A model generated the notes under the pieces. It saw only the letters and a list, made by a program, of their open reading frames with translations. It searched no databases and was not told the origin of the DNA. A stretch of 64,000 nucleotides of DNA. Origin: Terriglobia bacterium (GTDB taxonomy: Bacteria > Acidobacteriota > Terriglobia > 20CM-2-55-15). The DNA lies in contig CBDCLE010000011.1 in the NCBI GenBank assembly GCA_965218585.1, positions 77,620 to 141,619 of the forward strand, given 5' to 3'. Each line of letters starts with the position of its first letter. Positions within the stretch are counted from its first letter, which is position 1. Below are positions 8,925 to 62,223 of this stretch, piece after piece. A program made the translations under genes and the position numbers.

Positions 8925-8940
8925 GTGAAAGAAATACTAA

Positions 8941-9007: not shown

Positions 9008-9012
9008 TGTTC

Positions 9013-36590: not shown

Positions 36591-36699
36591 TCCTTTGCCC
36601 TCCTGCTCTGTTAATCGGCAGGAATGGGTATACACGTGGGTCAAATTTCGATGCAAATACCCGCTTTAAGTGGATCAGTTTTGGGTGCAAATCAACAGC

Positions 36700-36828: not shown

Positions 36829-36831
36829 CTT

Positions 36832-37674: not shown

Positions 37675-39020
37675 GCGGATGGCGGCGGCTCTATGCGAAA
37701 CCGGCGGGCGCGCTGCCGGGCGGGATTGTCACTCAATGGGGCGTCGGGATCATCGCCATCCTGGTCCTCCTGCTTCTGAGCGCCTACATCTATTTCGGGG
37801 GCGGTGAGGAAGCGGAGCTTGAGGAGGGCGCGGAGACGGTGCAGGCCCCGGCGGGGAGTTTCGCGGATCGGATGGCTTCGCAGGTCGAGGCCGAAGCTCT
37901 CCGGGCGGAGACCCGCCGACAAGCGACACAGCGGGCGTTGGAGCAGCAGCGGCAGCAACAGGGAGACACCGGCGGTGGGATCGGTGCGGGGCGGGTGAGC
38001 GTGGATGAAGCGATGCTCCTGGCCGGTCCCAGTCCCGACACCGGCCAGCCCTACACCGAGGAAGAATGGGAACTCCGCGAACGCTTGCGCCTGGAAGCGA
38101 TCGAGCGGCGGAGCCGTTCGCTTCGCAGTTCGCCCCTCGCGCAGACCTACCGGCAAGTAGACGAGACGGCAGGGATTGCCAGGCCACAGGGGACTGAAAC
38201 CGAAAGCCCGGTCGGGACCATGAGAGCGGAAGGAGCAGCGGCGCTCGAACAGGCGCTCGACACGCTTGGAACGGTCACAACCAGCCTGGAGGATCAAGTC
38301 GAGGCGGAGGCCCGGGCGGATCAGGCGTTTATCGAAGCACTGCGCGGGACGGAGGCAGCGGCGTTCCCCGCAGTCGCTTCAGCGGGCGCGGCGGACGTGC
38401 CGGCGCCACCGCGCGATTACTCTTCCCCGGTGCGGGTCGGAGAGCCGGAAGATCCTCCCGGCTGGGAACGGATCTATGAAGGCTCATTCCTGGAGGCGAC
38501 GCTGGCGACACAGCTTTCCGGTGACTTCCCCGGCCCAGTCCTGGCCGTGGTTTCGGTGCCGTTCTACTCGGCAGACCGGCAGCGGATTTTGGTGCCGCGA
38601 GGGACGCGAGTCATCGGCACGGCTCAGGCCGTGGCGAACCAGGACCAATCGCGCCTTGCCGTCAGTTTCCACCGTTTGATCCTGCCCGATGGCCGTTGGG
38701 TGTCGCTGGAATTTCATGGGCTCAATCAACTCGGCGAGGGAGCCTTGAAAGATCAGGTGAACCGCCACTACTTCTCCATGTTCGCCGCTGTCGGGGCGGT
38801 CGGTGTCCTCAGTGGACTGACGGCGGCGGGCGGCAACCCTTACGAGGGTGGCGTGGCGGGCTTCGGGGCCGGTGCCGGACAAGGGCTCGGCCAGGCCGCG
38901 ACGCGCATCCTGGATCGTTTCCTGAATCGTTTGCCCACCATCACAATTCGCGCCGGTCACCGGCTTCGCGTCTGGTTCACTTCCGACGTGCGGGTTCCCC
39001 GGCCCCAACAAGGAGACTGA
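37671..39020 (+). CDS. VirB10/TrbI-like T4SS protein
   Basis: TM anchor; EGSFLEATL...GTRVIG...RLILPDG...DQVNRHY...PTITIRAG. Confidence 0.85.
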   Translation: MSGWRRLYAKPAGALPGGIVTQWGVGIIAILVLLLLSAYIYFGGGEEAELEEGAETVQAPAGSFADRMASQVEAEALRAETRRQATQRALEQQRQQQGDTGGGIGAGRVSVDEAMLLAGPSPDTGQPYTEEEWELRERLRLEAIERRSRSLRSSPLAQTYRQVDETAGIARPQGTETESPVGTMRAEGAAALEQALDTLGTVTTSLEDQVEAEARADQAFIEALRGTEAAAFPAVASAGAADVPAPPRDYSSPVRVGEPEDPPGWERIYEGSFLEATLATQLSGDFPGPVLAVVSVPFYSADRQRILVPRGTRVIGTAQAVANQDQSRLAVSFHRLILPDGRWVSLEFHGLNQLGEGALKDQVNRHYFSMFAAVGAVGVLSGLTAAGGNPYEGGVAGFGAGAGQGLGQAATRILDRFLNRLPTITIRAGHRLRVWFTSDVRVPRPQQGD

Positions 39021-44544: not shown

Positions 44545-44548
44545 CTAG

Positions 44549-45945
44549 CAGCCTGCGCCGTAGGAAGTGAATGAGATAATTCTGTCGCAGTTAGGAGGAG
44601 AATGCGATGCCGACGACGTTTCGCCCGTACCAACCGGATCAAGGGTTGCTGCTGCCGCCGGATTTACGGGATTGGTTGCCGGAGGGGCACTTGGCGCACC
44701 ATGTGAGCGATCTGGTGGACGGAATGGACTTGACGGTGTTTTACGCGCCGTACGAAGGGGACGGTCGTCGCAAGTCGCCGTATGAGCCGCGGATGATGGC
44801 GAAGGTGCTGATCTACGGGTACGCGACGGGGGTGTTTTCCTCCCGAGGGCTGGCGCGGAAGCTGGAGGAGGACGTGGCGTTTCGGGTGTTGGCGGCGGGG
44901 AATTTTCCGAGCCATCGGACGATTTGCGAGTTTCGCCGCCGTCATTTGTCGGATTTCAAGGCGCTGTTTGTGGAGGTGGTCGGTCTGGCGCGCGAGACCG
45001 ACGCGGCGGAGGATGCGCGCTTTGGGGCGGCGTTTCGGGGCGACGAGTTGCCCGAGGAGTTGCGCCGGCGGGAGGACCGACTGGCGGCGATCCGGGCGGC
45101 GAAGGCGCGCCTTAAGGCGCGGCAGCGGGAGGCCGACCAGGCGCGGGGACGCGAGCCCGGTTCGAAGCGCAACCGGAAGGGCGGGCGGCCCTACAAGCGG
45201 GAGTACGGCGAGCCGGACGAGAAGGCGCAGGATAACTTCACGGATCCGGAAAGCCGGATCATGAAGACCTCGTCGGAGGGATTTCAGCAGTGCTACAACG
45301 CGCAGGTGGCGGTGGAGGGAGAGAACCAGTTGATCGTCGCCACCGAGGTGTCGTCGAACGCCAGCGACCAGGGTCGGCTGGTCCCGTTGGTGGACGAGGT
45401 GGAGGCCACCCATGGGGAACGGCCGGAGACGGTGCTGGCGGATGCGGGCTACTGCAACGAGGACGACCTGGAGGCGCTGGAGGCGCGCGGCGTGGACGCC
45501 TACGTGGCCTTGGGCCGGGAGGGCCGGCGCGCGGTCGCGGTGGACGCGGCCAGGCATCCGGCGAAGGCCCGCATGGCCGGGAAGCTGGCGACCTCGCCGG
45601 GACGGGCGCAGTACGCCCGACGCAAATGGCTGTCGGAGGCGCCCAACGGGTGGATCAAGGAAGTGCTCGGCTTCCGCCGATTCAGCCTGCGCGGCCTGCA
45701 CAAGGTCCAGGGCGAGTGGAACTTGGTGTGTCTGGCATTGAACGTCAAGCAGTTGCAGAGGCTTCAGGCAGCCTGATGACAGGCATACCGCCCGCAAATC
45801 AGGCCGAACGAGGGCCGATTCAAGCACCTGTGGCGCACCCAGCGGCGCGTCGTCGTCCAAAACGCCCATTCCCCGGTCACGGATGCCGATTGATCGCCAT
45901 CTCGCGTAATTCGCCGAGTCGAAAATCCTCCTACGGCGCAGGCTC
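44549..45945 (+). mobile_element. IS1182-family element copy 1, internally deleted; ORF 44607-45776
   Basis: TIR AGCCTGCGCCGTAGG, CTAG flanks; 51 aa shorter than copy 2 and lacks IDGTKVRANAS. Confidence 0.9.
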
Positions 45946-45973
45946 CTAGCCCCGATTACCCTCCTGCTGAGAC

Positions 45974-46945
45974 TCAGGTTTCATCGTTATCCATCATCCG
46001 CAGGCACCAGTTGAGGGGTTCAACGACTAGAAGGCCGCGCCCTTTCGTGGCGAACGGGTCTCGCAGGAGTGCCATGCGGGCCTTGTTGCTGCAGGCCCTT
46101 ACCACGAGCGCGAGCACGTAACGGGAGCCCATCTTTTCAGCGGCACTCCACTCGTTGTTCGTCATCTCCAAAGAAGGGAACCGGGAGAGCATTGTACCTT
46201 TGACCTCGACCGCCACGAGTTGGCCATCGTTGTCTTCGTAGCCGATATCCCAACCGGGAGTCTCGCCTTCCTGTGCCACCCAGCGGAGCGAGTCCCTACC
46301 ACGACCGGATAACGTTTGCCGAAGGTGATTCAAGACGCGTTCTTCCGCCCAATCGCCAACTTCCCGAGAGCGGTCAGACCTGCGAGTGCCGCCGCTGGTA
46401 GCGCCAAGGGCGGAACGTGGCCTTCGCAGAAAGAGACGAGTTGCGTCATCTTCGAAGGTAAGCGGTGCGCTCAAGGGATCGCGTGGCAGAGTCGGAGGGG
46501 CGGGAGATCTGCTGTGAGCTGCACTGAGGATACGGTCGAAGACATCTCGTGAAATCTCGCGTACGCCGGTACGCCATCCCAAAGCGTGGCCGATACGTTC
46601 GTAGGCCACACCGTTGTTTTTCGCTGGCACTGGTACGTCGAAAGGTTGGTAATCCTCAATCGCACAAAACCATCGCCGCTGTCGGGCGGGTGTATTCGTG
46701 CCCTGGTCGGGATCCTGCCAGACGTCACCGATGATGCCTGTTCCGAAATACTCAGCTTTTCCTCGCCTTCCGCCGGCCCGCCGAACACCCCGGTAGTAGA
46801 CGAAAAGCCGGCCCGAAGCCACTCGGTTCCGGTACGCGTTTGGAAACTGGTACTGAACGCCCGTATCATCGGCCCAGAAGTCGTACTCTCCTCCCATTGT
46901 CACTTCATTTTCGACGAGCACGAGAGTGTAGGGGGGTGATGACAT
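45974..46945 (-). CDS. DUF3883 (PD-(D/E)XK) nuclease with N-terminal EVE/PUA-like domain; candidate type IV restriction enzyme
   Basis: C-terminal GDWAEERV...PGWDI...VEVKGT...MTNNEW; N-terminal DDTGVQYQFP...FVYYRG...YFGTG. Confidence 0.7.
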   Translation of the reverse strand: MSSPPYTLVLVENEVTMGGEYDFWADDTGVQYQFPNAYRNRVASGRLFVYYRGVRRAGGRRGKAEYFGTGIIGDVWQDPDQGTNTPARQRRWFCAIEDYQPFDVPVPAKNNGVAYERIGHALGWRTGVREISRDVFDRILSAAHSRSPAPPTLPRDPLSAPLTFEDDATRLFLRRPRSALGATSGGTRRSDRSREVGDWAEERVLNHLRQTLSGRGRDSLRWVAQEGETPGWDIGYEDNDGQLVAVEVKGTMLSRFPSLEMTNNEWSAAEKMGSRYVLALVVRACSNKARMALLRDPFATKGRGLLVVEPLNWCLRMMDNDET

Positions 46946-47439: not shown

Positions 47440-49410
47440 TCACCCCGCAGGCTGAGGCGATCTTGGTAACCGTACCGAGCCGAGGATCTCTGTTCCCCCG
47501 ACAAGCTGCGGGAAAGGCCCACACGGTCCACGTCGGCTCGACGTGCGATTTTCAGATACGCCGCCCTGTAGCGCTGCCACGTTCCGAAAGGCTTTCATCA
47601 ACAATCGAGGGTCACCGTCGAACTCCTCGATCGCGGCGTTCAGGTACGCAGCGATGTCTTGACGTGTTTTGAGGTAGTCGCTAGCGCGGTGTTGTTTCAC
47701 GGGCACTTTTGCTTCTCTTGTTGATAAGCCTTCCAACAGGCCTGGATCATTTTGATGTCGCGGGCCTACCGTTTCTTCGTTCCGCCGACCAGGAGGATCA
47801 CGAGTCTTTCATTATCGAGGGAGTTATTGTCAAAAGTGGTGTTTTGCCGATTGACTCAAGCGGCGGCCTGATCGACGTGGGTCACTTCGATTCCATCGTT
47901 GAATTTCACTCCAGTAATCACCTTGGGCAGATCATCGAATCCTCGTAATCGTCGCCAATTCTTCTGAGCGCACTGTCCCAGTTTGAACATCATGTGCAGC
48001 ATGCCAACCCGCGTCAGGCAACCCCTGGATCGCTTGGTTCGGTGGCGAATGGTAGCAAAAGTCGACTCAATGGGATTGGTCGTTCGGATGCTCTGCCAGT
48101 GCTTGGCCGGGAAGTTGAAGAAGGCCAGCAGTTCTTCTTTGTCTTTCTGGAGGCAGCGAGTGGCTTTCGGATACTTCGGCTCATAGGTTTCAATGAACAG
48201 ATCGAATGCCTTCTCGGCGTCTGTCTGTGTCTGAGCCCGCCAGATCGCGTGCAAAGCCTGTTTCGCCTTCGCCTGGGCCGACTTCGGGAGCCCGTTCAGT
48301 ACGTTCATGGTCTTGTGCATCCAGCAACGTTGGTGACGTGTCTCGGGATAGATTTCCTCCAGTGCGGCCCAGAATCCCATCGCACCGTCTCCGATGGCCA
48401 ACTTCGGGATATTCATCCCACGCGACTTCAGCTTTAACAAGACCTCGCGCCAACTCTGTGTCGATTCCCGGACACCGTCTTCGATTGCCAGAAAACGTTT
48501 CTCTCCGCGTTGATTCGCGCCGATCACCACCAGTGCGCACAACTTGGTTTCTTCGGCCCGCAGTCCGCTGTAGATACCGTCGGCCCAGACATAGACCCAG
48601 CGATCGGCATCCAATCGCTCCTCGCATCCCCGGCGGTACTGCTCGGCCCAGACCTGTTTCAACCGCGATACCGTGCTCGCCGACAGGCCCTGCGCCTGGG
48701 GTCCGACAAGAACTTTTAGAGCGTCACCCATCTCGCCGCTGGAGACGCCTTTCAAATACAACCACGGCACCGCTGCTTCCAGCGATTTCGTTTTCCGAAT
48801 GTAGGGAGGTACCAGGGCCGACCGGAACGTTACCGGGTCGCCAGTCTTCGCTCGGACTTTCGGGATCTGGACCGTTACCGGCCCCAAACCGGTCTGCAGT
48901 TCACGTTCAGGCAGATAACCGTTGCGCACCACCCCGGCGTTGCCCGTCTCGGTTCTCCGATCGCCGTGGTGGGATAGCAGTTCCGCCAATTCGGTTTCCA
49001 CCGCGCGTTGGATCAGTTGCTGAGCTCCAACTCGTAGTAGCTCTGTTATCGGATCCTCAATCGTCTCTCGACCCTCCGGTCCAGTCACGTTACTCTTGCT
49101 CATAGTGGCGTATCTCCCTTGGTTGCTTTGAAGTCTGGTAAACAACAAATCAACCAGATACGCCGCTCTTCCTCAATCCCTTAAACACCAGATTCGGTTA
49201 TAACTCTTATCGAAGCTATAGTACACGCGGTATCCGGGGCCGAAGTCGATTCTAAGTTCGGAAAAGCCCTTCCCTACCCCCTTTGCGATCGCCGAAGTTT
49301 CCCAGCTCGATCCGGTCGATTCACGTCTGAACGCGAGCTCGAATCTCAGTGTCCTGGTTCTGAAGCCACTCGTCAAAGTAGTCCGTACCGACTTCTGCTA
49401 CGTAGTGAAC
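47440..49410 (-). pseudogene. RelE/HigB (HI1419-like) toxin and HI1420-like antitoxin, decayed; toxin split by IS256
   Basis: FDEWL...ELRIDFGPGYRVYY | LVILLVGGTKK with stops; DYLKTRQDIAAYLNAAIEE with frameshift. Confidence 0.75.
47820..49206 (-). mobile_element. IS256-family element; transposase 47856-49103
   Basis: VRNGYLPER, WADGIY, IGDGAMGFW, QRCWMHK, RTTNPIES; IR GAGTTAT..GGTGT; TTATCGA on both flanks. Confidence 0.93.
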
Positions 49411-49758: not shown

Positions 49759-50451
49759 TCATTCCTGCGGGTCATCAGTAATACTCCCTGAGAACGGTTC
49801 AGAACCATAACGGCAATCAAGCAGATTTGGACAATGACCGCAATCGGGGCTGCGTGGGGTACAAATCTTCATTGTGAAATCCAGGACCGCATAGTTATAT
49901 TCCTGAAATGCTCGCGGTGGCGTCAGCCTTTCGGCCAGATCCCTCACCCAGGAAACACCACGTGGGTCGCGGTTGTAAGGATTGCCAGTCATACGGCTAA
50001 GCCAGCGGACCACATTACTGTCAATTAGAACAGCCCGCTTACCCCGGTGCAACGAGAGCCATGCCGCTGCCGTATACGTTCCAACGCCCTTGAGTTTCGT
50101 AAGCTCATCCATGTCTTCCGGCAGGGCGCCGCTGTGTTCAACCGCAACGGCTGCAATGTCACGAAGCAAACCAAGCCGAAAACCTAGCCCCAATTTTCGG
50201 ACTATAAGAGAGACCTCATTTAGATCGGCACCCAATAGGGCTAACGGTGTAGGGTAACGCTTCTTGAACTCCTCATAAACGCCCTTAACCTGGCTAGCTT
50301 GTGTACGTTGTAAAAACAACTCGGCAACAAATGTAAGCCAGGCGCCCGTGTCTATCCGCCATGGATATTCCTGATAATTCTTCCGCCCCCAATAGAGCAG
50401 ACGACGGCGTATGTTCCGAACTTGATGTCCTGTGAGCTCTTGCGTTGTCAC
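49759..50451 (-). CDS. HhH-GPD DNA glycosylase, Mig (T:G mismatch)/MutY-like
   Basis: YPWR, ELFLQRT, LKGVGTYTA (HhH), DSNV, C-x6-C-x2-C-x5-C FeS motif; no MutY C-terminal domain. Confidence 0.85.
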   Translation of the reverse strand: MTTQELTGHQVRNIRRRLLYWGRKNYQEYPWRIDTGAWLTFVAELFLQRTQASQVKGVYEEFKKRYPTPLALLGADLNEVSLIVRKLGLGFRLGLLRDIAAVAVEHSGALPEDMDELTKLKGVGTYTAAAWLSLHRGKRAVLIDSNVVRWLSRMTGNPYNRDPRGVSWVRDLAERLTPPRAFQEYNYAVLDFTMKICTPRSPDCGHCPNLLDCRYGSEPFSGSITDDPQE

Positions 50452-50468
50452 TATCCGCTTCTCTTCAA

Positions 50469-51835
50469 TGGGGTTGACCCGGTTTAGTGGACACCTGATC
50501 CTCTTGCGAGGAGGAGGTATCCACGATGCCGAGAACGAGGGCACCGTATGCGGCGGTATTCCGGGAGCAGATGGTCGAGCTGGTTCGGTCCGGACGCACA
50601 CCGGAGGAGTTGGCCCGGGAGTTTGAACCGTCGGCCCAAGCGATTCGGAACTGGGTGGCACAGGCGGGCCGTGATGCTGGCCAGCGGACCGACGGCCTAC
50701 GTAGTGAAGAACGCGAGGAACTGAGGGGGCTACACCGGGAGAACCGGCGCCTGCGCGACGAGCGTGAAATCCTGGAAAAAGCAACGGCATGGTTCGCAGG
50801 GGAGACCGGATCCAGGAGGTCTACCGGTTCATGAGTGCGAATCAGGGGCGTTTTCCTATCGCCACGATGGCCCGGGTGCTTGGCGTCTCCCCGAGCGGGA
50901 ACTACGCGTGGCGTGGGCGTCCACGGTCGGGTCGCTGGCAGGCCGATGCGGAGCTGACGGTGCGAGTCCAGGCGATCCATGCCCGCGGCTGCGGGAGCTA
51001 AGGCGCGCCACGAATTCACGCCGAACTGGCCGCACGTGGCGTTGCGGTCAGCCGCAAGAGGGTGGCGCGGGTGATGCGCGCCGCGGGCGTGACCGGTGTG
51101 AGCCGTCGCCGTGCGCCGCGCACGACGCGTCGGGACTCGCAGGCTCCGCCGGTACCGGATCGGGTCGAGCGGCACTTCCAGGCCGACGCGCCGAATCGCC
51201 TGTGGATCGCCGATATCACCCACGTGCCGCCGCTCGTCGGCTTCCTGTACCTGGCCATCATTCTCGACGTGTTCAGCCGGCGGATTGTGGGCTGGGCGAT
51301 GGCGAACCACCTGCGCACCGAGTTGGTCGTTGAGGCGCTGGAGATGGCCGTGGCACAACGCCGGCCGGCCGGGGTCATTCATCATTCGGACCGAGGCTGC
51401 CCAATACACGTCGCTGGCCTTCGGCGCCCGCTACCGCGACTGGGGCGTGGCGCAGTCGCTGGCCTCGACAGGCGATTGTTTTGATAACTCGATGGCCGAG
51501 AGTTTCTTTGCGACGCTGGAATGCGAACTGCTCGACCGCATGACCTTGTCCACGCATGCCGCGGCGCGGAAGGCAGTGTTCGATTTCATCGAAGGTTGGT
51601 ATAACACCCATCGACGCCATTCGGCTCTGGGCTATCGGTCGCCGTTGGAATTCGAACGACTCCATGCCGGCCCTGTGGACGGTGCCCGGCCTGTGGACGC
51701 CCTTCGGCGACCACAGGTCCGTTGGACCCCACGCTGCGCGCGGGCCCCACACCGCCCACAGGCAACGACGACGATGTCAATCTCATGACGTGAACCCGAA
51801 AGCGTTAACCTGTCCACGAAATCGGGGCAAGCTCA
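50469..51835 (+). mobile_element. IS3-family element, degenerate (orfA 50526-50834; orfB with stop at 50999 and frameshift near 51400)
   Basis: TG...CA ends with TGGACA/TGTCCA IR core; WIADIT, HHSDRG, DNSMAESFFATLECE. Confidence 0.88.
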
Positions 51836-51837
51836 AC

Positions 51838-52365
51838 CTAATCAAGCCAAATGATTTTTGCGATGCCGAGTTTCGTGGCCGCATCCTCAACCAGTACCCG
51901 CGCGTGCATTTCATGAAACCTCCCTAGAGAATAGAAGAAAACGGCGGCATGAGGGCCGCTGTTAGATTTGCCAAATGTCCGTTCATGCAATGCCATCAAT
52001 ATCGTTTTCCAGTCGTCGGCGCGACCCCAACAAATCACTCGCCCATCCTCAAGCCGCCGGCCATGTGGTTTGGTATACCTGTCGATGACATACGCGGCTT
52101 CCGGAATGCCAAGAACTCGAAATGGCTGTTCATGGTCTGCCAGACGAGACCTGGTGTAATCCTTTAGTAGTGTGTCCTTTATGTAGACGCGAATCTGTCC
52201 CTGCCCCATATACCTGCCAAGACGGCCACCAATTTCGGGGTCCTTGGTCCATGCCTCATAGTGGTGAGACTTATCCGTCGGACTAAGGGTAGCCCACCCC
52301 AGATCATCGGCTTGCTGCCATAGCTTCTCTCTTAGAGCGGTTCTTGTGGTGTCTGGAACACTCAT
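51838..52365 (-). CDS. Hypothetical 175-aa protein coupled to the helicase gene
   Basis: ATGA overlap with helicase stop; no motif recognised. Confidence 0.75.
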   Translation of the reverse strand: MSVPDTTRTALREKLWQQADDLGWATLSPTDKSHHYEAWTKDPEIGGRLGRYMGQGQIRVYIKDTLLKDYTRSRLADHEQPFRVLGIPEAAYVIDRYTKPHGRRLEDGRVICWGRADDWKTILMALHERTFGKSNSGPHAAVFFYSLGRFHEMHARVLVEDAATKLGIAKIIWLD

Positions 52366-55300
52366 TGGACATTTCCGGGCGGTGCCGGATCAGGAAACTC
52401 AAACTGGGGTAGCTCAAGTGTCGGGTCGCTCTCTCGCAAAAACAAAGACGCTTGATCGAGCATCCACTCTTGAAGGAAGCTGCCTGCTGACGCATCGCTG
52501 AACTGAACGATCCGACTTCCTAAACCCAAGCGCTCCAGTGGACCATCACGTGCCGCCTTGTCGAGTTCAATGACCTCGGCAATCCGTCGAATATCCGTGA
52601 CAAAATCCAGAACGATCACGTTCTTCTTGCCAGGACTCACACGAAGACCACGCCCTAACTGTTGAACAAATATACGGCGGCTGTGAGTCGCTCGCAAGAA
52701 CACAATAAGATCGACATCCGGCACATCGACTCCCTCGTTAAACAGGTCGACACTCGTGAGTACGTCCAGGTGACCGACCCTGAACCGGGTCATCAGTTTG
52801 TCGCGTTCGCGAGGAGGCATGTCGCCGTAAATTGGCTCTGTCTTTATGCCATAGCGGCGAAGCATTGCAGCCATGCTTTTTGCATGAGCGATTGTGGGGC
52901 TGAACAGTATCGCAGCACGCCGTCCTTCGTTTTCGAAGGCTTGCTTGATTAGCCGCGCGGCCTGTTCATCCCTTGTTGGGATAATGAGCTTGCGGTTCAA
53001 TTGAGAGAGAGAATACTTGTGTGTAGATGCCTCTTGAACAAAGTTCCAGTCGAGATTATCAGCTAAGAGCCGATAGTCCACCTCTGACAAGAAGCCTTGC
53101 TGTAGTCCCTCGGCAATCCCGATCTTCACCAACGGCTGACCGAGAATCTCGTCAATATCGAATGCGTCACCGCGCCAGGGCGTCGCCGTGACACCTCCAA
53201 GCATTGGCGGATTCAACACATGAATTGCACGTCGAAACATATCCGCTCCGACATGATGCGCTTCGTCAACGAGTATGAGGCCGAAACTGGGAAGTTTATC
53301 AAGTTGGGAAACGACGCTCTGAATGGTCGCGAACGTAATGCCGTCCCAATAAACTGGGCGCTCGCCCTCGGAAAATTGGTGAGTTGGCACCCAACTCGGA
53401 AGCTGGTACCAGAATGCCTTGTGGAGCTGATCAACAAGTTCGCGGGTATGGGCGAGAACAAGCACTCGGTTTTCTGTGATTAGACCATCCCGATACAAAT
53501 CAGCTACGACCTCAGCCATCACGACGGTTTTACCAAGACCGGTAGCTAGCACGACTTGCGCGCGCCCTGTATCGAGCAAGGCTTCACGAAACCGCGACGA
53601 GGCATTTTCCTGATAATCACGCAGTGCGCGACGGGAAGGCGCATATTCGGGGCTGCTCCTCATACGTTTGAGTAACACGCCGGGTGGGGCTAGGAGCCTG
53701 CGCCGTAGGAAGTGAATGAGATAATAGTGTCGCAGTTAGGAGGAGAATGCGATGCCGACGACGTTTCGCCCGTACCAGCCGGAGCAGGGGTTGCTGCTGG
53801 CGCCGGATATACGGGATTGGTTGCCGGAGGGGCACTTGGCACACCATGTGAGCGATCTGGTGGACGGATTGGACTTGACGGCGTTTTACGCGCCTTACGA
53901 GGGGGACGGTCGTCGCAAGTCGCCGTATGAGCCGCGGATGATGGCGAAGGTGCTGATCTACGGGTACGCGACGGGGGTGTTTTCGTCCCGAGGGCTGGCG
54001 CGGAAGCTGGAGGAGGACGTGGCATTTCGGGTGTTGGCGGCGGGGAATTTTCCGAGCCATCGGACGATTTGCGAGTTTCGCCGGCGTCATTTGTCGGATT
54101 TCAAGGCGCTGTTTGTGGAGGTGGTCGGTCTGGCGCGCGAGACCGGGGTTGGGAACTTCGGCAAGTTGTCGATCGACGGGACGAAGGTTCGAGCCAATGC
54201 CAGCAAGCGCAAGGCGATGAGTTACGGTCGGATGCAGGAGGAGGAGCGGCGCCTGGAGGGCGAGATCGAAGCGTTGCTGTCGCGCGCGCGGGAGACCGAT
54301 GCGGCGGAGGACGCGCGTTTCGGGGAGGCGCATCGCGGCGATGAGTTACCCGAGGAGTTGCGCCGCCGGGAGGATCGGCTGGCGGCGATCCGGGCGGCCA
54401 GGGCGCGATTGGAGGCCAGGCAACGGGAGGCCGACGAGGCGCGGGGACGCGAGCCCGGTTCGAAGCGCAACCGGAAGAGCGGGCGGCCCTACAAGCGGGA
54501 ATACGGCGAGCCGGACGAGAAGGCGCAGGACAACTTCACCGATCCCGAAAGCCGGATCATGAAGACCTCATCGGAGGGTTTTCAGCAGTGCTACAACGCG
54601 CAGGTGGCGGTGGAGGGAGAGAAGCAGTTGATCGTCGCCACCGAGGTGTCGTCGAACGCCAGCGACCAGGGTCGGCTGGTCCCGTTGGTGGACGAGGTGG
54701 AGGCCACCCATGGGGAACGGCCCGAGACGGTGCTGGCGGATGCGGGCTACTGCAACGAGGACGACCTGGAGGCGCTGGAGGCGCGCGGCGTGGACGGCTA
54801 TGTGGCCTTGGGCCGGGAGGGCCGGCGCGCGGTCGCGGTAGACGCCGCCAGGCATCCGGCGAAGGCCCGCATGGCCGAGAAGCTGTCGATGGAGGCGGGA
54901 CGGGTGCAGTACGCCCAGCGCAAATGGCTGTCGGAGGCGCCCAACGGGTGGATCAAGGAGGTGCTCGGCTTCCGCCGATTCAGCCTGCGCGGCCTGAACA
55001 AGGTCCAGGGCGAGTGGAACTTGGTGTGTCTGGCATTGAACGTCAAGCGGATGCAGGGGCTTCAGGCAGCCTGATGACAGGGATACCGCCCGCAAATCAG
55101 GCCGAACGAGGGTCGATTCAAGCACCCGTGGCGCACCCATCGGCGCCTCGTCGTCCAAAACGCCCATTCCCCGGTCACCGATACCGATCAATCGCCATAT
55201 CGCGAAATTCGCCGAGTCGAAAATCGTCCTACGGCGCAGGCTCCTAGCTCGATCTTGAGACCTTGGCGCTCAAAACGAGCCTTCTCTTCCAAGAGTCCCC

Positions 55301-55598
55301 GGCCGGGTGGTCGCGACGTAGACACAACCATTCGGTCCGCTTCGTAATATCGAGCGGCTTCAACGACCTCGCTTACTGCGGCCTTTGGCGGATTTGACGA
55401 GGTGGTATGTTTACATTGCCAAACCCACAGCTTGTCGTTCTTGACGCCTAAGACATCCGCCCCTCGATCACCCGACCCGCCGACAACGCGCACATCACCA
55501 AATCCATTAACGATGAGGAGGCGTGCAACATCTCTCTCGAATGCCTTCCAAGGGCCATACAGCAGCCTTCGCTCATCAAGGAACCCGGAAAGCTGCAT
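52362..55598 (-). pseudogene. Mrr-like restriction endonuclease-SF2 (DEAH, ResIII-like) helicase fusion, interrupted by IS1182
   Basis: FERDVARLL...GDRGADV...QCK; LATGLGKT, DEAHH, TATP, EGVDVP, QQLGRGLR; removing the IS restores KIEL-APPGVLLKRM. Confidence 0.88.
53694..55243 (+). mobile_element. IS1182-family element copy 2; full-length transposase 53752-55074
   Basis: TIR GAGCCTGCGCCGTAGGA, CTAG duplication (53690-53693, 55244-55247); IDGTK, ADAGY motifs. Confidence 0.93.
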
Positions 55599-55600
55599 GG

Positions 55601-57935
55601 CTACTCCTCGTTGAGGGCCGCAGACGGCGCTAGGAGCTCCAGAGACAAACTAGCGCGTAGGAGACGCGCACGATCAGCAGCGGCTAAGTCATCCACGTCT
55701 TGTTCCGCAAGCCAAATGGCGTCAGCAAGCAGGCCTTCAAAGTATCTGACCAACTGCGCCTTGGCCTCTTCTGTTGCACTCGGCCGCCCGTAATCCAACT
55801 CCGAGTAGCTCTCATCCCAATACTGATCGTCAAAGAACAGCTCAGGGTGCTTAGAGAAAAATTTCAGAATACTGGTACGAGGCGCATACTCAAGGAAGCG
55901 ACCCGCGGCGATAGCTGCTTGGGGGTTCGCCAACTGACGCGTTGCCATCTTATGGAGGATGGCCTCCTGTTCGGAAGGGGAAAACTCTTCGAACAGCACT
56001 CGACCATCTTCCGGATCGAGTCTCTCTGAAACACCTTTCGCAATATCTGAAAGCGTCAAGGACGCTTCGCCGGACAAAGTAACAGGATCGAGCTTGGTGG
56101 TACCCGCATATCGTTCTCTGAGGTCCGCCAGAACCACACCAAAGGGTATGTCGGATTGGTCACCTCGGAGAAAATCCTTGGCTGACCAGGCTAACTCGGC
56201 GAGCAATGCATCCAACGTTGTGAGCGTTGCTGAGCGAAACGCCTCATGGGTTGGATTGACGAAAAACTCGTGCAGGCCCGAAGCCGTAGCTTTCAGTCTC
56301 CACGGAACCGTCTCCTCACCGAGTTCGGGATCGGAGTCCTCTACCGTCCAAGCGCGAACCTCCCAGCGTTGGTTGCTTCGATCATGTCTGTATTCTTGGC
56401 TCAGTGATGCCAGATGAGTTCGGTGTGCTGGCTCCGGCACTGGTTCCGGAGTATCAGGCTCCTCAGGTGGCTCTTCTTCTCCCTCATCCCCAAACCCCTC
56501 AAGGTCGTCATCTGGATCTCCTGTTGTCCCCGTATCCGTCAGAAGCTTCCGGTCTTCTTCCTCGACAAGCTCCCACCATTTTGTGTCTTCCCGGCATTCG
56601 AGATCACCAGCATGGAATTTCTTCGCCATCTGTTCGGCAAGATCATTGTCTCTAACAATGAGCAACCGCGCCCACGAACCTGCTACTTTGGGCTTCGGGC
56701 TTGACCGTCGGAAAGCTTGGAAAAGCAGGAACAAGGGGCTGTCATTCGGACCAAATCCAAGTTCACGCGCCTTGTCCGGGCGCAATGGACCATCGCCGCG
56801 AACGATATGCCCCATTTCCTCCCAGGCAGGATCGTTCCGGTCAAACCTGTTCTTTCGTGTATGTCACCCGACAATGGTCGAGATGGATCTCACCAACCAG
56901 ACGTCCCCTATTCCGCGGATCGTCAATCGGATATTCGGGCTCCTCACCGTCGTCGGAGTGCCAGACAAAGAGCTCTCTGCTGGAAATTTCGATCTTTCGT
57001 CCGTTCCGTATGAAATCGACTCCGTATTCGGAGTTGCTGAGATACCGCTGGACACCCATCCAGCCATGAACACGTCGCTTTCGCTGTATTATCTGTCCGC
57101 CACGGCCACAGGAACATTCGGTCTGGCCCGCCGGCAACCATTGCCAGCAGGCAAGGCAAAAGGGTCGGTCGCTTAGGTTTCGATCGATTGTCTGAAAAGC
57201 TCGAACTGTACCGAATCTAGGGCTCTGAACGATTCTTTCATCGCCCCAGATGCAAGGGTATCGGGCCTGTACTCTGTTTCTGTTGACAGACAGAGAAAAT
57301 GAAATCGGCACCCCGGTGGTTCGCAGCATTGCGGAGTACGTTTTGCTTAACTCGCGCGATATCTGACTCCTGTTGGCCGCGCGGGCGAACCACGTACGTT
57401 GCTCAGGTTTCAAAAGCTCGATGGATACTTCCGTTCCATGTTCGTGAGGATCAACCTTCTCCCTCTTGAGATGCGGCGTTCGAAAATGCCTCTGCTGCTG
57501 AAGCGCGTTGAAATCGATTTTTAGACCATGCCATTCAGCATCATCGCGACGGGTGGTCCAAACGGTCGTGACCGTCCCGAGACGCGCGGTAGCGATGTTG
57601 AATCCCATGCCAAACATGCCCAAGCTATCCACGGGAGTATTTCCGCTCCAACCGGCGCGCACTGCTGTTTCCAAGGTCTCAGACGACATGCCGGAACCGT
57701 TATCTCGGACAGATATCTTGGCGGAACCGCTATCCGAGGTTGGGACGGCGATATGCACTTCAGGATCGTCAACTGCTTTATCCTGTCGCTTCGCTGACAG
57801 AAATCCATCAACGGAATTGTCTACGAGTTCCGCTAGACACCGCCACTGCGCGAGATTGATTTCGCCGAGCATCGGCAAAATCCGCGGATCGGGTTGCAGA
57901 TCGAACTCGTCTTGCGTCTGAATATCGTCATTCAT
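55601..57935 (-). CDS. MORC-like GHKL ATPase with S5 fold, Zn ribbon and helical C-terminus (1-nt indel near 56850)
   Basis: ELVDNSVDG, DNGSGM, GMFGMGF, HGTEV; CLAC...CSC; RLVGEIHLD; removing one A restores YTKDRFDRNDPAWEEMG. Confidence 0.8.
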
Positions 57936-57949
57936 AAGTAGCACCCCCG

Positions 57950-59194
57950 CTATCTCCGGCTTTTTGACCGACTGGTATTTTTCTTGTTGGCAGATCCAGC
58001 TATTTGTCGGAAAAGCTTCCGTCCAATTACCTCCGCAAGATCAACCGGAACCGCGTTCCCAATCTGCCGCGTTACGTGGATCCGAGCCCCACAAAATACG
58101 AAATCGTCGGGAAACCCTTGGAGTCTCGCCGTTTCGCGCAGCGTGAAATAGCGATGCGTCCCATCATCCAGCAAGACGATATTCTCGCCGCCGGGAACGC
58201 CATGAACCCCCGCCTTAATTGTCTTTGATGGCCAGTCTAGTCGGCTGCCAGAATGGCCACGATAGATTCGTGCGCCGCGAACTAGCCAATGATTATTGTC
58301 GGATTTCGACTCGCTGGCGGCAGGAGACGGAAGGTCCGATATCGAATCCCGGACAGTCTTCCACGCATCAAATGCCGCAAAATCGTCCAAGTCCAATGCG
58401 GCCGTGCCGTTTGGCCCATTTTTAGGAGGCTTTAAGCGGCGGCTTTTCCAGTATTCACCATTGGTCTGTGTCCGTATTAGGGCTTCTTTTTTGTGGCTCG
58501 CCAGCGGAAAATCAAACTTTCCGGTAATGTCGGCCCTGGTCGCAATGATAAAGATGCGTCGCCGATTCTGCGCGATTCCGTAGTCGGCCGCTTCCAATAG
58601 CGCCCAGTTTACGTGGTATTCACACTCGTCCGTTGTAGCCTCTTCGTGTTGAGAAATTCGTTCGTCGTGTTTCTGCCACTCCTCTTCTTTCTTGGGCGCC
58701 ACAGAAGGCCATTCGAGCTGCCGTAAAATATACTCAAGGTATGGGCGAAACGACAGCCGAGCCAATCCTTGGACATTCTCGAGCATCACGGCTTGAGGCC
58801 ACAACGATCTCACCGCCCGGAGAACTTCGGGAAACATATTGCGATCGTCTTTGTCTGCCAAGTGACGGCCTGCCAAGCTAAATGGTTGGCATGGCGCGCC
58901 ACCAGCAAGCAGCCGGATTGGTCCTTCGAATTCGTCCCAATTCAATTTAGAAACATCTTCCTCGCGCACCTCACCATGTAACAAACCACCCTTAGACGAA
59001 TGGTTCTTTTCCAGCGTTTCGCAGGTATGCGGATCGATTTCAAATACATGTGAAAATTGAAACCCTGCCTTTTGTAGGCCCAGAGTCATACCACCGGCCC
59101 CAGCGAAGATTTCAATATCGGCAGAGGAGGTTGCTGTTGCCTTCTTAGATTTTCGAGTTTTGGTCACGGCCCCCGAACCGCCGATGGCGGTCAC
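57950..59194 (-). CDS. DNA cytosine-C5 methyltransferase
   Basis: FAGAGG, GGAPCQPFS, ENV, QNRRR, RETARLQGFPD, QIGNAVP. Confidence 0.95.
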   Translation of the reverse strand: MTAIGGSGAVTKTRKSKKATATSSADIEIFAGAGGMTLGLQKAGFQFSHVFEIDPHTCETLEKNHSSKGGLLHGEVREEDVSKLNWDEFEGPIRLLAGGAPCQPFSLAGRHLADKDDRNMFPEVLRAVRSLWPQAVMLENVQGLARLSFRPYLEYILRQLEWPSVAPKKEEEWQKHDERISQHEEATTDECEYHVNWALLEAADYGIAQNRRRIFIIATRADITGKFDFPLASHKKEALIRTQTNGEYWKSRRLKPPKNGPNGTAALDLDDFAAFDAWKTVRDSISDLPSPAASESKSDNNHWLVRGARIYRGHSGSRLDWPSKTIKAGVHGVPGGENIVLLDDGTHRYFTLRETARLQGFPDDFVFCGARIHVTRQIGNAVPVDLAEVIGRKLFRQIAGSANKKNTSRSKSRR

Positions 59195-59780: not shown

Positions 59781-59860
59781 AAACGGGGAAACGGGGAGCG
59801 CCGGTTGGCGCTGAAATTCTGTGGCCTGAAGTGTGGGGCAAAGCGATCGAATCGAGGATT

Positions 59861-59894
59861 TTTACGCGCGATAACTGGAATTATCGGGCGTAAA
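59861..59894 (+). other. 34-bp lox-like recombination site A
   Basis: TTTACGCGCGATAA-CTGGAA-TTATCGGGCGTAAA (14-6-14). Confidence 0.8.
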
Positions 59895-60197
59895 CATCAG
59901 TTCCGCGCCAAGTCCGTACTGCATGAGCATTTCGCGCCGTGATCCGCATTCCCGAGCACGTTCGATCATAACCTGCTGAAATCACTTCGTTTTTCCGGAA
60001 AAGCGTTGCGTCCGCCGACGTGACACAGGCGGAGGGCGATGCCCCATTGCGGGGTATTGTAGCAAGAATGTCCACTTTTTTACTCGCGATAACAACCGAG
60101 AGGGATCCGGGCACCGCTTGGGACGGTGCGGGCGAGCCTATACCCCGGACGTGCGCGCCGACATCACGACCCGGAAGTCTCTAGCGTGGGGCCGGCC

Positions 60198-61181
60198 TCA
60201 GCGCTGCTGCCGCTCGGCCAGTTGCGCGGCGCCGCTACGCCGGGCCAGCAACCGTTCCCCGTAGCGTTGGACCATGCGTGTCGTCTTCCACCGCCCGGAC
60301 TGCAGGATGGCCGGCAACTCGATGCCGCAGGCGATCATATCCTGAACCGGCCCGACGCGCGTGCTGTGCCCGGCCAGGGCGTCGACGATGTCGTCCGGAA
60401 GCCCGGCGCGCCGTGCCATCCTCTTGTAGATGCGCGGCACCTGGCTCGGGTCGAGTTTCTCCCGCACCGTGCCGTCCTTCCGCACCGAACGAAACAACCG
60501 CCCCTCGCCGACGCCGCTGGCTTCCAGCCAGACCTGGACCAACTGCACGGTGTCGCGCGCGAGATAGAGCATCGCGCCTCGTCCGTCCGGGTCGGTCTTG
60601 CCCGACCGCACCAGCAAGGTTGCGGACCCATCGACTTCCACCAATAAATCAGACACTTCCAGCGACACCAGCTCGGACCGCCGCAACATGGTGTCGTAGG
60701 CCACCGCCAGCAGCGCGCGGTTCCGGACGTCGATCCGCCGGTCACCGGCCGCCTCCAGCAGCCGGTTCCGCAGCGGTCAGGTCAGCCCCTGAACCTGCGC
60801 CTGCCGGCGCCCCCGGAGCCGGTGCATCCGTTGCAGGGCGAACCGGACGAGGGCGCTCTCGAGCGGGTTCGTCTGCCGGAGCGCTTTGTGCATGGTGGCG
60901 ATGCTGGAGACGTAGCGGCGCACCGTCGACGGGGCCTTGACCCGCGCCATGTCGTCGATAAAGGCGACGAGGGTGGCGGCGCTGGCGGGCAGAGCCGCCA
61001 GGACGTGTTGCCGGCACCAGGTCGCGAAGATCTCCACATCCGCCCGCAGCGCGCGCTCCGTGTTGCGGCTGAACGCACCCCGGGCCGCTTCGAAGTAGAC
61101 GGCCAGCTGGTCTCCCACCTCCGCGGCGTGTTCAACATCGGCCAGGATCTCCAAGTCGAGTGTCGGGTCTGAAATCAGCAT
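60198..61181 (-). pseudogene. Cre-like tyrosine recombinase with one in-frame TGA (60777-60779)
   Basis: N-terminal SRNTERALRAD; MLRRSE, SGKTD, GHSTRVG, GRWKT, MVQRY; both ORFs in the same frame. Confidence 0.88.
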
Positions 61182-61217
61182 CGGTCAGCCTCCGGTTCAG
61201 TCGAAAAGACCGCGCAT

Positions 61218-61251
61218 TTTACTCGCGATAATTCCAGTTATCGCGCGTAAA
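61218..61251 (-). other. 34-bp lox-like recombination site B (inverted relative to A)
   Basis: TTTACTCGCGATAA-TTCCAG-TTATCGCGCGTAAA; reverse complement matches site A at 32/34. Confidence 0.8.
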
Positions 61252-61602
61252 ACGGACCCGAGAACCGCTGAGAACGCAACCCATCAGGGCCCATTCCGAT
61301 TGCCTCAAACACGCTAGTAGCTGCTTGACTGCCATACAGTTTTTGACGCGACTCGGCCGCCAACGTTAAGGTCGGTCGCCGGTGTCGTCCCCCGGCGATC
61401 CTGGCCCGAGGTTGCTGGTTGGCTTACCCGTCCGTCGGCACGGTGAAGCGTGAGCTGTGTCCACACTTCGGCGGTGATCCGTGTTCGGCACGCAACGTGG
61501 CTCGCGGATCCCATCACGTTAGAGTCGGAAAGTACTTGTAGGGTCCTGTCCTGGGTCGCCTGCCATCGACCATCTAGTTTCAAGTCATGGGATCACCACG
61601 AC

Positions 61603-62223
61603 ATGGAGGCTGCCCTGAAGAAATACGGTAACCGGTTGATCGCGATGACGCTGCTCTGCGGCTCCTGGCTAATGGCCGCGTCCTGCACCCCGGCGCAGAA
61701 CGAACAAGAACTCTTTCAGAACGATGCCGAGCAGGGGGACGCGGACACGCCGGACAGCCTCGGACGCAGGTACGACGATGGCGAGGCCGCTATAGAAGAC
61801 GATGGCGAGGCCGCTATAGAAGATGACCGTGAAGCAATGCGGTGGTTCCGCACAGCGGCGGAGCAGGGGGACGCGCGTGCGCAGTTCAATCTGGGAACCA
61901 TGTATGACAACGGCGAGGGGGTCATCGAAGACGATGCGGAAGCGGCGCGATGGTACCGCATGGCGGCCGAGCAGGGACACGCGAGCGCACAGTTCAACCT
62001 CGGGGTCATGTACGACAACGGCTTGGGGATCATCGAGGACGACGTGTTCGCGCACATGTGGTTTAACATGGCCAGCGCCAATGGAAGGGTCAGTATCGCT
62101 GGCGTTGGGCCCGAGGAGTCACGGGCCAATCTTGAGCGTGAAATGACCAGTGCCCAGATCAGCCGCGCCACTGAGCTGGCACGCGCATGCGTGGCCTCGG
62201 ACTACCAGAACTGCGGGCCGTAA
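61603..62223 (+). CDS. Sel1-like repeat lipoprotein
   Basis: LMAASC lipobox-like; AAEQGDARAQFNLGTMYDNGEG repeats. Confidence 0.85.
   Translation: MEAALKKYGNRLIAMTLLCGSWLMAASCTPAQNEQELFQNDAEQGDADTPDSLGRRYDDGEAAIEDDGEAAIEDDREAMRWFRTAAEQGDARAQFNLGTMYDNGEGVIEDDAEAARWYRMAAEQGHASAQFNLGVMYDNGLGIIEDDVFAHMWFNMASANGRVSIAGVGPEESRANLEREMTSAQISRATELARACVASDYQNCGP

Follow-up and report, generated by a model that had tools for sequence, protein, structure and literature searches.

A decayed MORC ATPase cassette from a Terriglobia bacterium and its relatives: a probable methylation-based restriction system

We analyzed a 64,000-nucleotide (nt) stretch of DNA from a Terriglobia bacterium (positions 77,620 to 141,619 of contig CBDCLE010000011.1, assembly GCA_965218585.1), which we call the window. 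Our subject is a cassette of five genes that runs on the minus strand from 59194 to 49759. In order, these genes encode a C5-methyltransferase, a MORC-type GHKL ATPase, a fusion of an Mrr-type nuclease to a superfamily 2 (SF2) helicase, a protein of 175 amino acids (aa) that we call p175, and a Mig-type DNA glycosylase. A first-pass annotation, made from the sequence alone, had described these five co-oriented genes along with two insertion sequence (IS) elements, and the coordinates, strand, and domains all agree with the list of open reading frames (ORFs) and with our searches of Pfam, PADLOC, and NCBIfam. The cassette is also, as that annotation noted, less rich in guanine and cytosine (G+C) than the IS copies: its G+C content without them is 53.6%, whereas the elements have 65.3% and 65.8% and the window as a whole has 58.2%. 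The genes are tightly packed. There are 14 nt between the methyltransferase and MORC (taking the ATG at 57935 as the start codon, which is the one used in the closest relative) and 2 nt between MORC and Mrr, and the helicase stop and the p175 start overlap in ATGA. These spacings are as first reported, but the last one, which had been put at about 19 nt, is either 1 nt, if the glycosylase starts at a TTG that spans the junction with the IS3-family element, or 31 nt, if it starts at a GTG at 50451.

To find relatives, we aligned p175 with 22 of its homologs and used the resulting profile to scan one genome per species. This gave 63 loci from at least eight phyla, going by the titles of the records (Pseudomonadota, Planctomycetota, Verrucomicrobiota, Acidobacteriota, Gemmatimonadota, Nitrospirota, Myxococcota, and Thermodesulfobacteriota). 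A remoter copy, at 30% identity, is on the plasmid pDrdI of Deinococcus wulumuqiensis. This set of loci is anchored on p175, so it shows which genes accompany p175 and not what fraction of MORC genes lack it. The closest relative (L001, from a metagenome-assembled genome of Pseudomonadales) is 87-89% identical to the window at the DNA level.

Both halves of MORC, the Mrr domain, and the helicase are all present in 55 of the 63 loci; five of the others are cut by contig ends and three are truncated remnants. Mrr and the helicase are fused in a single ORF in 58 of 58 loci, and p175 starts directly after the helicase in 63 of 63. Across the 47 complete loci, the Spearman correlations of pairwise identities are 0.87 for MORC and the helicase, 0.70 for the helicase and p175, and 0.66 for MORC and p175 (these values are descriptive and come from related sequences, so they are not independent tests). 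MORC, the nuclease-helicase fusion, and p175 form a fixed core of three genes that diverge together. The check on synteny that had been suggested for the cassette thus came out well for four of its five genes, which travel together in the related loci.

The first gene of the cassette (57950-59194, minus strand) has an intact ORF, although its true start may be a few codons inside. It is a C5-methyltransferase by its matches to DNA_methylase in Pfam (E = 5.8e-60) and to MTase_II in PADLOC (2.9e-107), and it has all of the motif strings FAGAGG, PCQPFS, ENV, QNRRR, and GNAVP. A tblastn search matched it to the methylase gene on pECO29 (a plasmid, NC_001537.1; 4e-85), with 40.3% identity across 89% of the query; this gene adjoins one that is annotated as "Eco29kI family restriction endonuclease." We took the stretch between the QNRRR and TLRETARLQGFP motifs as the target-recognition region. 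This region is 137 aa in the window's enzyme and 138 aa in M.Eco29kI, and the two are 40% identical; in the methyltransferases of the related loci, it is 40-53% identical to that of M.Eco29kI.

A C5-methyltransferase was found in 53 of the 55 loci with a complete core, and in 52 of these it is within 3.2 kb. (The two loci without a match, L007 and L062, both have short flanks.) It is directly upstream of the core, as in the window, in 23 loci, and its stop overlaps the start of MORC in several; in another nine it is 300-2000 nt upstream, and in one it is upstream on the opposite strand. The other loci have it downstream: on the same strand within 600 nt (13 loci), convergent (four), or farther off (three). 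In 51 of 52 of these methyltransferases, the target-recognition region is conserved as much as the catalytic core (mean identity 0.55 vs. 0.52, minimum 0.38). C5 methylases with differing specificities do not usually keep this region so conserved, which argues that the partners of the core form a single family, the M.Eco29kI family, in 51 of 52 cases. Nine of the 63 loci have an Eco29kI-like endonuclease beside the methyltransferase, while the window and 54 other loci do not; similarity to the target-recognition region of M.Eco29kI is the same with this endonuclease in the locus or without it (0.48 vs. 0.47). The recognition site of Eco29kI is CCGCGG, so membership in a single family provides a testable guess at the target motif. 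CCGCGG occurs in the window 0.50 times per kb, which is uninformative either way about the target.

The MORC gene is in two parts. The 5' part (56841-57935, minus strand, within a 367-aa ORF at 56841-57944) encodes the GHKL motifs (HATPase_c_3, 5.1e-15), an S5-like domain, and a cysteine-rich insert of the form C-x2-C-x10-C-x-C (57108-57158). The alignment of MORC orthologs shows almost no variation in the residues of the GHKL motifs or in the S5-like lysine. Cys260, Cys263, and Cys274 of the insert are nearly invariant as well, which supports the zinc ribbon that was originally proposed for this protein. When we compared a profile of the family to the Protein Data Bank (PDB), the matches were to MORC3 (4.7e-06), MORC4 (2.2e-05), and then Hsp90 (0.0074), and MutL was not among the matches listed. 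A fold search with Foldseek found MORC2, MORC3, and SMCHD1 at around 1e-10, with Hsp90 and TRAP1 equal or better and ranked first.

The 3' part of MORC (55601-56845, minus strand, with a 404-aa ORF at 55601-56815) is colinear with the C-terminal half of orthologs of 769-866 aa. It has helical segments, an acidic and proline-rich linker of low confidence, and a conserved C-terminal domain. We did not find a Pfam or NCBIfam family for this part, and a search of the Atlas gave no named family. In the AlphaFold2 model of MORC from L001, the mean predicted local distance difference test (pLDDT) score is 81.3, the acidic linker is disordered (under 50), and the C-terminal domain is mainly helical.

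Sequence and ortholog alignment place a +1 frameshift between the two parts (56840-56849, minus strand, near 56846-56849). The 5' ORF ends prematurely with VTYTKEQV and a stop, where the orthologs read YTKDRFDRNDPAW or ...VTYTKDRFDRNDPAWEEM..., and the window's MORC resumes in the +1 frame with FDRNDPAWEEM, colinear with the orthologs. A programmed frameshift is ruled out, because the N- and C-terminal halves are a single ORF in 50 of 52 related loci and the two exceptions (L009 and L047) break elsewhere. The frameshift could be genuine, or it could stem from an error in sequencing. It was missed in the first-pass annotation, according to which the cassette could be repaired by removing the two IS elements; the frameshift would have to be corrected as well.

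The gene for the nuclease-helicase is split by an IS1182-family element. Its 5' fragment (55244-55598, minus strand; ORF 55188-55598) encodes the Mrr domain (Mrr_cat, 1.2e-11), with the PD-(D/E)xK motifs GDRGAD ... QCK. The 3' fragment (52362-53693, minus strand; ORF 52362-53678) encodes the SF2 core (ResIII, 1.8e-24; Helicase_C, 1.9e-20), with the motif strings GLGKT, DEAH, TATP, and QQLGRGLR, and a C-terminal tail. Across 38 orthologs, the GDxGxD and QxK motifs of Mrr and the Walker A, DEAH, TAT, and VI motifs of the helicase are invariant.

The IS1182-family element (53694-55243, plus strand; transposase ORF 53752-55074; transpos_IS1182 in NCBIfam, 9.7e-111) has perfect terminal inverted repeats of 22 bp and is flanked by CTAG at 53690-53693 and 55244-55247. 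This site is empty in L001. The alignments pair window 59379-55244 with L001 3234-7365 and window 53693-52519 with L001 7362-8536, so four bases of the empty site align to both edges in the window, and CTAG is the target duplication. Removal of the element and one copy of CTAG leaves an uninterrupted frame of 560 codons. Most orthologs have 556-574 aa, and the longer ORF calls are due to over-extended upstream starts. L001 has an insertion of its own in the 3' part of this gene (1.3 kb at 8536-9843, with a 414-aa ORF at 8579-9823). The nuclease-helicase gene has been knocked out twice independently, in the window and in L001, by insertions at different positions. The window also contains a second IS1182-family copy (44545-45949), which is 90-95% identical to the first over 300-nt blocks and about 150 nt shorter.

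The best PADLOC match for the helicase is mREase_IV (5.7e-43 for the window and 6e-42 for an intact ortholog), but only positions 239-570 of the 945 in that model are involved, which is the helicase core. REase_I (1.2e-13) and REase_III (2.5e-06) are weak matches to the helicase core. In NCBIfam, RadD (6.6e-42), XPB (1.2e-20), and rad25 (1.1e-12) are all far below their cut-offs. The solved chains nearest to the intact ortholog are RadD (6jde, 1.4e-30) and a "Putative helicase" (7clg, 5.6e-30), along with XPBII and RAD25. This ortholog matches 23 PADLOC families, through the helicase core apart from one weak match to the nuclease domain of ZorD. Pfam identified no additional target-recognition domain in the window's helicase.

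The gene for p175 (51838-52365, minus strand) is intact. The protein has no family in Pfam, NCBIfam, or PADLOC, and p175 from the intact ortholog matches 0 PADLOC families. It has many homologs: 324 of 412 candidates have E ≤ 0.001, and 389 representatives do so among 1.84 billion proteins, nearly all of them about 175 aa long. None of the homologs are in the phage collection. Long proteins with matches to p175 proved to be RCC1-repeat proteins with 10-18 matched stretches, and we treated these as spurious. (Residues 77-120 or so of p175, KPHGRRLEDGRVICWGRADDW, resemble a blade of an RCC1 repeat.) The AlphaFold2 model (pLDDT 92.5) has a helical N-terminal half and a C-terminal half with the order beta-beta-beta-alpha-beta-alpha-beta. 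Foldseek found no match for it in the PDB at E ≤ 0.001; the best was 4zcf_A (0.046, with a template modeling score of 0.28). For p175 and the C-terminal part of MORC, the Atlas has only unnamed clusters, with NucS_C (0.79) and DUF6551 (0.91) as weak leads.

Two proteins of about 505 aa (P0250 and P0258) combine a PIN_8 nuclease-like domain with the complete p175 domain behind it (for P0258, the hhalign probability is 99.2%). In eight of the 55 core loci and on a Ruegeria plasmid, the next gene after p175 is a separate one for PIN_8. We considered whether p175 shares a domain with the separate PIN_8 protein of L040, but the comparison showed no relationship, so the longer proteins are fusions of PIN_8 to the whole of p175. 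A profile comparison of p175 with the nuclease-helicase likewise showed no relationship (probability 0.5%). Given the PIN_8 fusions and neighbors, p175 seems to be an adaptor through which nucleases are connected to the cassette.

The last gene (49759-50474, minus strand, within an ORF at 49759-50790) encodes a DNA glycosylase (HhH-GPD, 3.2e-06, and HHH in Pfam). The domains named in the first-pass annotation are correct, and its description of this protein as Mig-like is apt, as the best match of solved structure is 1KEA, a "Possible G-T mismatches repair enzyme" (2.4e-29, positions 17-215 of 221). In this alignment, the Asp-Asn pair (vliDsNvvR vs. amvDaNfvR) and the four Fe-S cysteines are matched. 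Thus the protein has the fold, the catalytic aspartate, the 4Fe-4S cysteines, and the size (about 230 aa) of a Mig-type T:G mismatch glycosylase, and it lacks the C-terminal domain of MutY. It scores 125 bits against the MutY family (TIGR01084), whose cut-off is 286.5, and it matches the PADLOC model "Type II nicking endonuclease" (2.8e-28). The glycosylase probably removes thymine from the T:G mismatches that are left by deamination of 5-methylcytosine. On an archaeal plasmid, the gene for the protein of 1KEA has a GGCC methylase gene as its neighbor.

Most relatives have Vsr, which we detected with our own profile, seeded with 13 ORFs that were confirmed by Pfam. Vsr is present in 47 of the 55 core loci, beside the methyltransferase or directly after p175, and in at least 12 loci it occupies the glycosylase's place after p175. 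We found no Vsr in L001 or in the window (in the latter case, by Pfam on the ORFs of the cassette). Between p175 and the glycosylase in the window lies a degenerate IS3-family element (about 50475-51829, plus strand; rve_3/rve_2 in Pfam and transpos_IS3 in NCBIfam), which begins 8 nt after the p175 stop and reaches the glycosylase start or a point just short of it. Its transposase is spread over several frames and its terminal repeats are imperfect (TGACCCGGTTTAGTGGACA / TGCCCCGATTTCGTGGACA).

With a frameshift in MORC, IS1182 inside the nuclease-helicase, and IS3 at the junction of p175 and the glycosylase, the restriction arm of the window's copy is dead, while the methyltransferase and p175 genes are intact. 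When a restriction-modification system decays, it commonly ends up with only its methyltransferase ORF intact. The lesions are recent, because the ratio of nonsynonymous to synonymous substitution rates (dN/dS) between the window and L001 is 0.07-0.21 in all six pieces and there are no further stops.

The cassette sits in an IS-rich part of the window, with remnants of type IV secretion (CagX and TrbI) and elements of the IS21, IS256, and IS110 families. At 34301-39020, an IS21 pair (IstB, 2.8e-79, and a Mu-transposase-like IstA) is beside CagX (8.6e-26) and TrbI (6.4e-41). This region appears to be what is left of an integrative conjugative element, with which the cassette may have arrived. 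A small mobile element, or what remains of one, lies directly upstream at 59860-61252: inverted repeats of 35 nt (94% complementary) surround a G+C-rich segment with a tyrosine recombinase that is split into a SAM-like N domain (60777-61181, weak) and Phage_integrase (60198-60704, 2e-11). Farther upstream is a gene for a Sel1-repeat protein (61450-62223; Sel1, 4.6e-25). Its three direct repeats of 89 nt (61726-62054, 62-71% identical) are ordinary repeat-protein periodicity.

On the other side of the cassette, an IS256/Mutator-family transposase (47856-49148, 3.7e-62) and a small ORF with a weak match to addiction-module antidotes (47440-47736, 1.6e-04) lie between the glycosylase and a 323-aa ORF with a NOV_C/DUF3883 domain (45974-46945, minus strand, 1.7e-14). 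The latter ends 25 nt from the second IS1182 copy and matches the C-terminal end of PADLOC's TmtA (Tiamat) models (2.8e-14) as well as PDC-S36. Another nuclease-based defense gene may have left this ORF as a remnant, or the ORF may be a small relative of such a gene.

We also ran Pfam on 114 ORFs that neighbor 13 of the related loci. These include Eco29kI-like endonucleases, GmrSD_N, HEPN_AbiV, AAA_15/AAA_21, nSTAND1-WD40, and PIN_8 proteins; an integrase, a serine recombinase, and a relaxase; a second GHKL gene that is paired with an HNH gene; and ordinary metabolic genes. The GHKL and HNH pair is in L026 (10550-12970), directly after p175 (HATPase_c_3, 2.8e-10, and an HNH endonuclease, 1.5e-10). 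Further on in L026, on the other strand, are an Eco29kI-like endonuclease, a methyltransferase, and Vsr. On pDrdI, the cassette adjoins genes for a nucleotidyltransferase, an E2/UBC protein, a Mov34/MPN protein, and a SAVED protein, and we take this row of four genes to be a CBASS system. The pair in L026 recalls the pairs of paraMORC1 and HNH in PMC2292703.

We consider it probable that the cassette is a decayed copy of a conserved and horizontally mobile restriction system that is based on methylation and driven by ATP. The core travels with a C5-methyltransferase of the M.Eco29kI family and with a T:G repair enzyme, which is usually Vsr and is a Mig-type glycosylase here. An N-terminal PD-(D/E)xK nuclease joined to an SF2 translocase is the architecture of restriction R subunits. 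In such a system, the methyltransferase would mark a fixed short motif in the host's DNA, possibly CCGCGG or something close to it. A dimer of MORC would close on DNA in an ATP-dependent manner and, together with p175, would license the nuclease-helicase, which would then translocate and cut unmarked DNA. The C-to-T mutations that 5-methylcytosine causes would be kept in check by Vsr or the glycosylase. The mechanism suggested in the first-pass annotation runs along similar lines and is a reasonable hypothesis.

Several observations weigh against this proposal. No component has yet been tied to reading the methylation state or the target sequence. The C-terminal domain of MORC has no assigned family in Pfam, NCBIfam, or the Atlas, and p175 has no fold match in the PDB at E ≤ 0.001. 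In nine of 63 loci the methyltransferase has its own type II endonuclease, so the MORC module is not needed there as a cutting partner. The methyltransferase also diverges only loosely with the core (Spearman correlations of 0.26-0.31), and its position and strand vary. The synteny counts are conditional on p175 and do not show that every such MORC has p175. Finally, we found no experimental study of any such cassette in the full-text literature, a search that left subscription journals largely outside.

Alternatively, the cassette could be a self-contained machine for the repair of damage from 5-methylcytosine. Vsr or the glycosylase would open the T:G mismatch, and MORC, as a relative of MutL, would activate that enzyme and recruit the helicase-nuclease, which would strip the damaged strand in the way that MutL, UvrD, and exonucleases work in mismatch repair. 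The cassette would then accompany the methyltransferase in order to make up for the mutations that this enzyme causes, and not to attack foreign DNA. We think this is unlikely, even though the C5-methyltransferase and a T:G repair enzyme are the most constant partners of the core (53 and, for Vsr, 47 of 55 loci, with Mig-like enzymes here and in L023) and the methyltransferase is already served by a type II endonuclease in some loci. E. coli MutL stimulates Vsr, which also fits, and the parallel with MutL, UvrD, and Vsr is stressed in PMC2292703 itself. However, a fusion of an Mrr-type nuclease to a translocase is a hallmark of restriction, the neighbors of the core are conflict and mobile-element genes, and p175 has PIN_8 nucleases as fusion partners or neighbors. 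IS elements struck the nuclease-helicase independently in the two nearest copies and left the methyltransferase intact. Furthermore, Vsr accompanies many C5-methyltransferases that have no MORC module, so its link to the core may run through the methyltransferase alone. It is very unlikely, in our view, that the core is instead a nuclease module of a modification-dependent (type IV-like) or methylation-independent kind, which only happens to lie beside a Dcm-Vsr or type II system in defense islands and makes no use of that methyltransferase to mark self DNA. The helicase core is nearest to mREase_IV, the methyltransferase's arrangement and divergence are loose, and a complete type II pair adjoins some loci, all of which speaks for this reading. 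But the match to mREase_IV covers the helicase core only, the partner is from a single family of methyltransferases instead of being an arbitrary methylase, and the 23 directly upstream methyltransferases have stop codons that overlap or nearly touch the next start. Also, a nuclease directed at 5-methylcytosine would attack its own host if it were beside a 5-methylcytosine methylase.

The place of the glycosylase in the restriction system that we propose is less certain. Counting it as a conserved member of the cassette, as was done at first, does not stand: only two of the 63 loci have a homolog, and in one of these (L051) it is 9 kb away. The IS3 element has no visible target duplication in its flanks, which blurs the link between the glycosylase and the cassette, and homology to L001 ends exactly at the p175 stop, after which L001 has a MaoC-like gene. 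A rearrangement mediated by IS3 could therefore have placed an unrelated neighbor beside p175, but we think this is somewhat unlikely. L023 has an 87-aa truncated ORF that is 51% identical to the glycosylase over the first 77 residues that match, and this ORF overlaps the p175 stop by 13 nt. If IS3 is removed from the window, an in-frame TTG is 1 nt past the p175 stop. The glycosylase's G+C content (52.0%) resembles that of the cassette and not that of the window, it lies in exactly the place that Vsr takes in at least 12 loci, and its PADLOC match is to a "nicking endonuclease" model from restriction-modification. Because it is rare and has a Vsr-like position, the glycosylase is best read as a rare non-orthologous stand-in for Vsr, with some doubt left by the IS3 element and by the end of the homology to L001.

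More tentatively, the core may serve in immunity as a DNA clamp that is gated by ATP and reads the cytosine methylation state set by one family of methyltransferases, with p175 as an adaptor of new fold to nucleases (to the Mrr-helicase always and to PIN_8 in some lineages). If this possibility is correct, then the clamp module would be a bacterial counterpart of the methylation-linked silencing by eukaryotic MORC proteins, and an intact ortholog would be the first tractable system for studying how a MORC ATPase acts on DNA. The window's copy matters less in itself, as it is a dead copy that kept its methylase. However, the related loci turn a loose neighborhood theme into a defined cassette, with three core genes, one family of methyltransferases, and Vsr or a glycosylase as an accessory. 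They also add the conserved p175 family, which has no match to a solved fold and is naturally fused to a PIN-like nuclease. Because cultured, harmless bacteria contain intact copies, the cassette is open to tests with phages and plasmids; candidate carriers are Roseovarius sp. 217 (L030), Yoonia litorea DSM 29433 (L025), Ruegeria meonggei CECT 8411 (L041), and Fodinicurvata fenggangensis DSM 21160 (L024).

Among the systems in PADLOC 2.0, we did not find a match to the cassette: MORC and p175 from the intact ortholog match 0 families, and the matches of the helicase are of the core type. This agrees with the first-pass annotation, in which the set was not recognized as a type I, III, or IV restriction-modification system, DISARM, or Druantia; the defining components of these were absent from our search results. 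HsdR, Res, and SauUSI resemble the nuclease-helicase in having a nuclease and an SF2 translocase in one chain, but the cassette has no HsdM/HsdS or Mod, and its partner is a monomeric-type C5 methylase. For type I, neither Pfam nor PADLOC identified HsdM or HsdS in the cassette, and REase_I is a weak match. Type III is ruled out because the methylase is C5 and not N6A or N4C, the nuclease is N-terminal, and the match to REase_III is poor. The extra domains of SauUSI, a type IV enzyme, are PLD and DUF3427. The preprint bioRxiv 10.64898/2026.09.23.753747 describes SauUSI as a helicase-nuclease with additional target-recognition domains. A SauUSI-like type IV system is ruled out because the match is to the helicase core, no reader domain was found, and a C5 methylase is a constant neighbor.

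The window's methyltransferase matches DruM (3.9e-87) and DrmMII (1.1e-37) because both are C5 methylases. DISARM is ruled out, as the match to DrmMII is by the methylase only: the helicase, MORC, and p175 have no Drm match, and no equivalents of DrmA or DrmB were found. Druantia type II is ruled out because DruM is the only match and PADLOC found no equivalents of DruE, DruF, or DruG. Hma consists of the Snf2 helicase and DUF3883 nuclease HmaA, the DUF1156 methylase HmaB, and the DUF499 ATPase HmaC (PMC11232893); HmaA is not among the 23 PADLOC families that match the ortholog's helicase, and, again, MORC and p175 match none, so Hma is ruled out. So are Mza (MzaB scores 23.1 bits in NCBIfam, with an equivalog cut-off of 850, and 17.3 bits in PADLOC) and the GHKL restriction enzymes BbrUII/HgiDII (NF050001; 15 bits, E = 0.0067, with a cut-off of 550). 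The VcSduA/paraMORC3 type of Shedu is a single GHKL-DUF4263 protein (PMC12137116), unlike this multi-gene cassette.

Other systems share single components with the cassette. The Eco29kI type II system of pECO29 has a methyltransferase of the same family but has no MORC, helicase, or p175. Dcm-Vsr pairs also place a T:G mismatch enzyme beside a C5 methylase, and Vsr does this job in most relatives of the cassette. The eukaryotic proteins MORC2, MORC3, MORC4, and SMCHD1 share the GHKL and S5-like fold, but the bacterial MORC lacks their CW and coiled-coil regions and has its own cysteine-rich insert and an unrelated C-terminal domain.

The closest resemblance in overall design is to MANTIS (Gao_RL, or BREX-related type 2), which combines an ATPase, a small protein, a methyltransferase, and a helicase-nuclease; according to bioRxiv 10.64898/2026.09.23.753747, its SauUSI-like SF2 helicase-nuclease restricts unmethylated DNA. 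By analogy, MANTIS is the best experimentally studied model for how the cassette might work. Where the cassette has GHKL, p175, and Mrr, MANTIS has an ORC/Cdc6-type AAA+ DUF499 ATPase, a DUF3870 small protein, and a PLD nuclease. The sequence relationship is confined to the helicase core, and none of the domains of MANTIS (DUF499 in MtsA, DUF3870 in MtsB, those of MtsC, and the PLD-helicase MtsD) are in the Pfam results for the cassette. The methylase of MANTIS is reportedly adenine-specific, with its own target-recognition domain.

Although the cassette was first put forward as undescribed, operons of this type were predicted by Iyer, Abhiman, and Aravind in 2008 (PMC2292703). They described MORC operons in which an RE-fold nuclease is joined to a Rad25-like SFII helicase and which often include cytosine methylases and Vsr, and predicted that these are mobile restriction-modification systems in which MORC loops DNA; they also proposed such bacterial operons as the source of the eukaryotic MORC chromatin ATPases. 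In a 2026 preprint on Tiamat, the role of prokaryotic MORC proteins is still "proposed." The cassette corresponds to the first operon type from 2008 in that it has a GHKL and S5 protein that is nearer to MORC than to MutL or Hsp90, a fused nuclease-SFII helicase, and a cytosine methylase nearby. Vsr, which is frequent but not obligatory in that type, is also frequent in our related loci, and in the window the glycosylase is in its place. The abbreviations for a figure in the 2008 paper include Roseovarius sp., and one of our loci (L030) is from Roseovarius sp. 217. The accessible text does not mention a p175-like gene, a single family of methyltransferases, a glycosylase in place of Vsr, or PIN_8. 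Relative to that text, what is new here is p175 as a core subunit, the apparent restriction of the partner to a single methyltransferase family, and the swap of Vsr for a glycosylase, while the operon type itself was already predicted in 2008.

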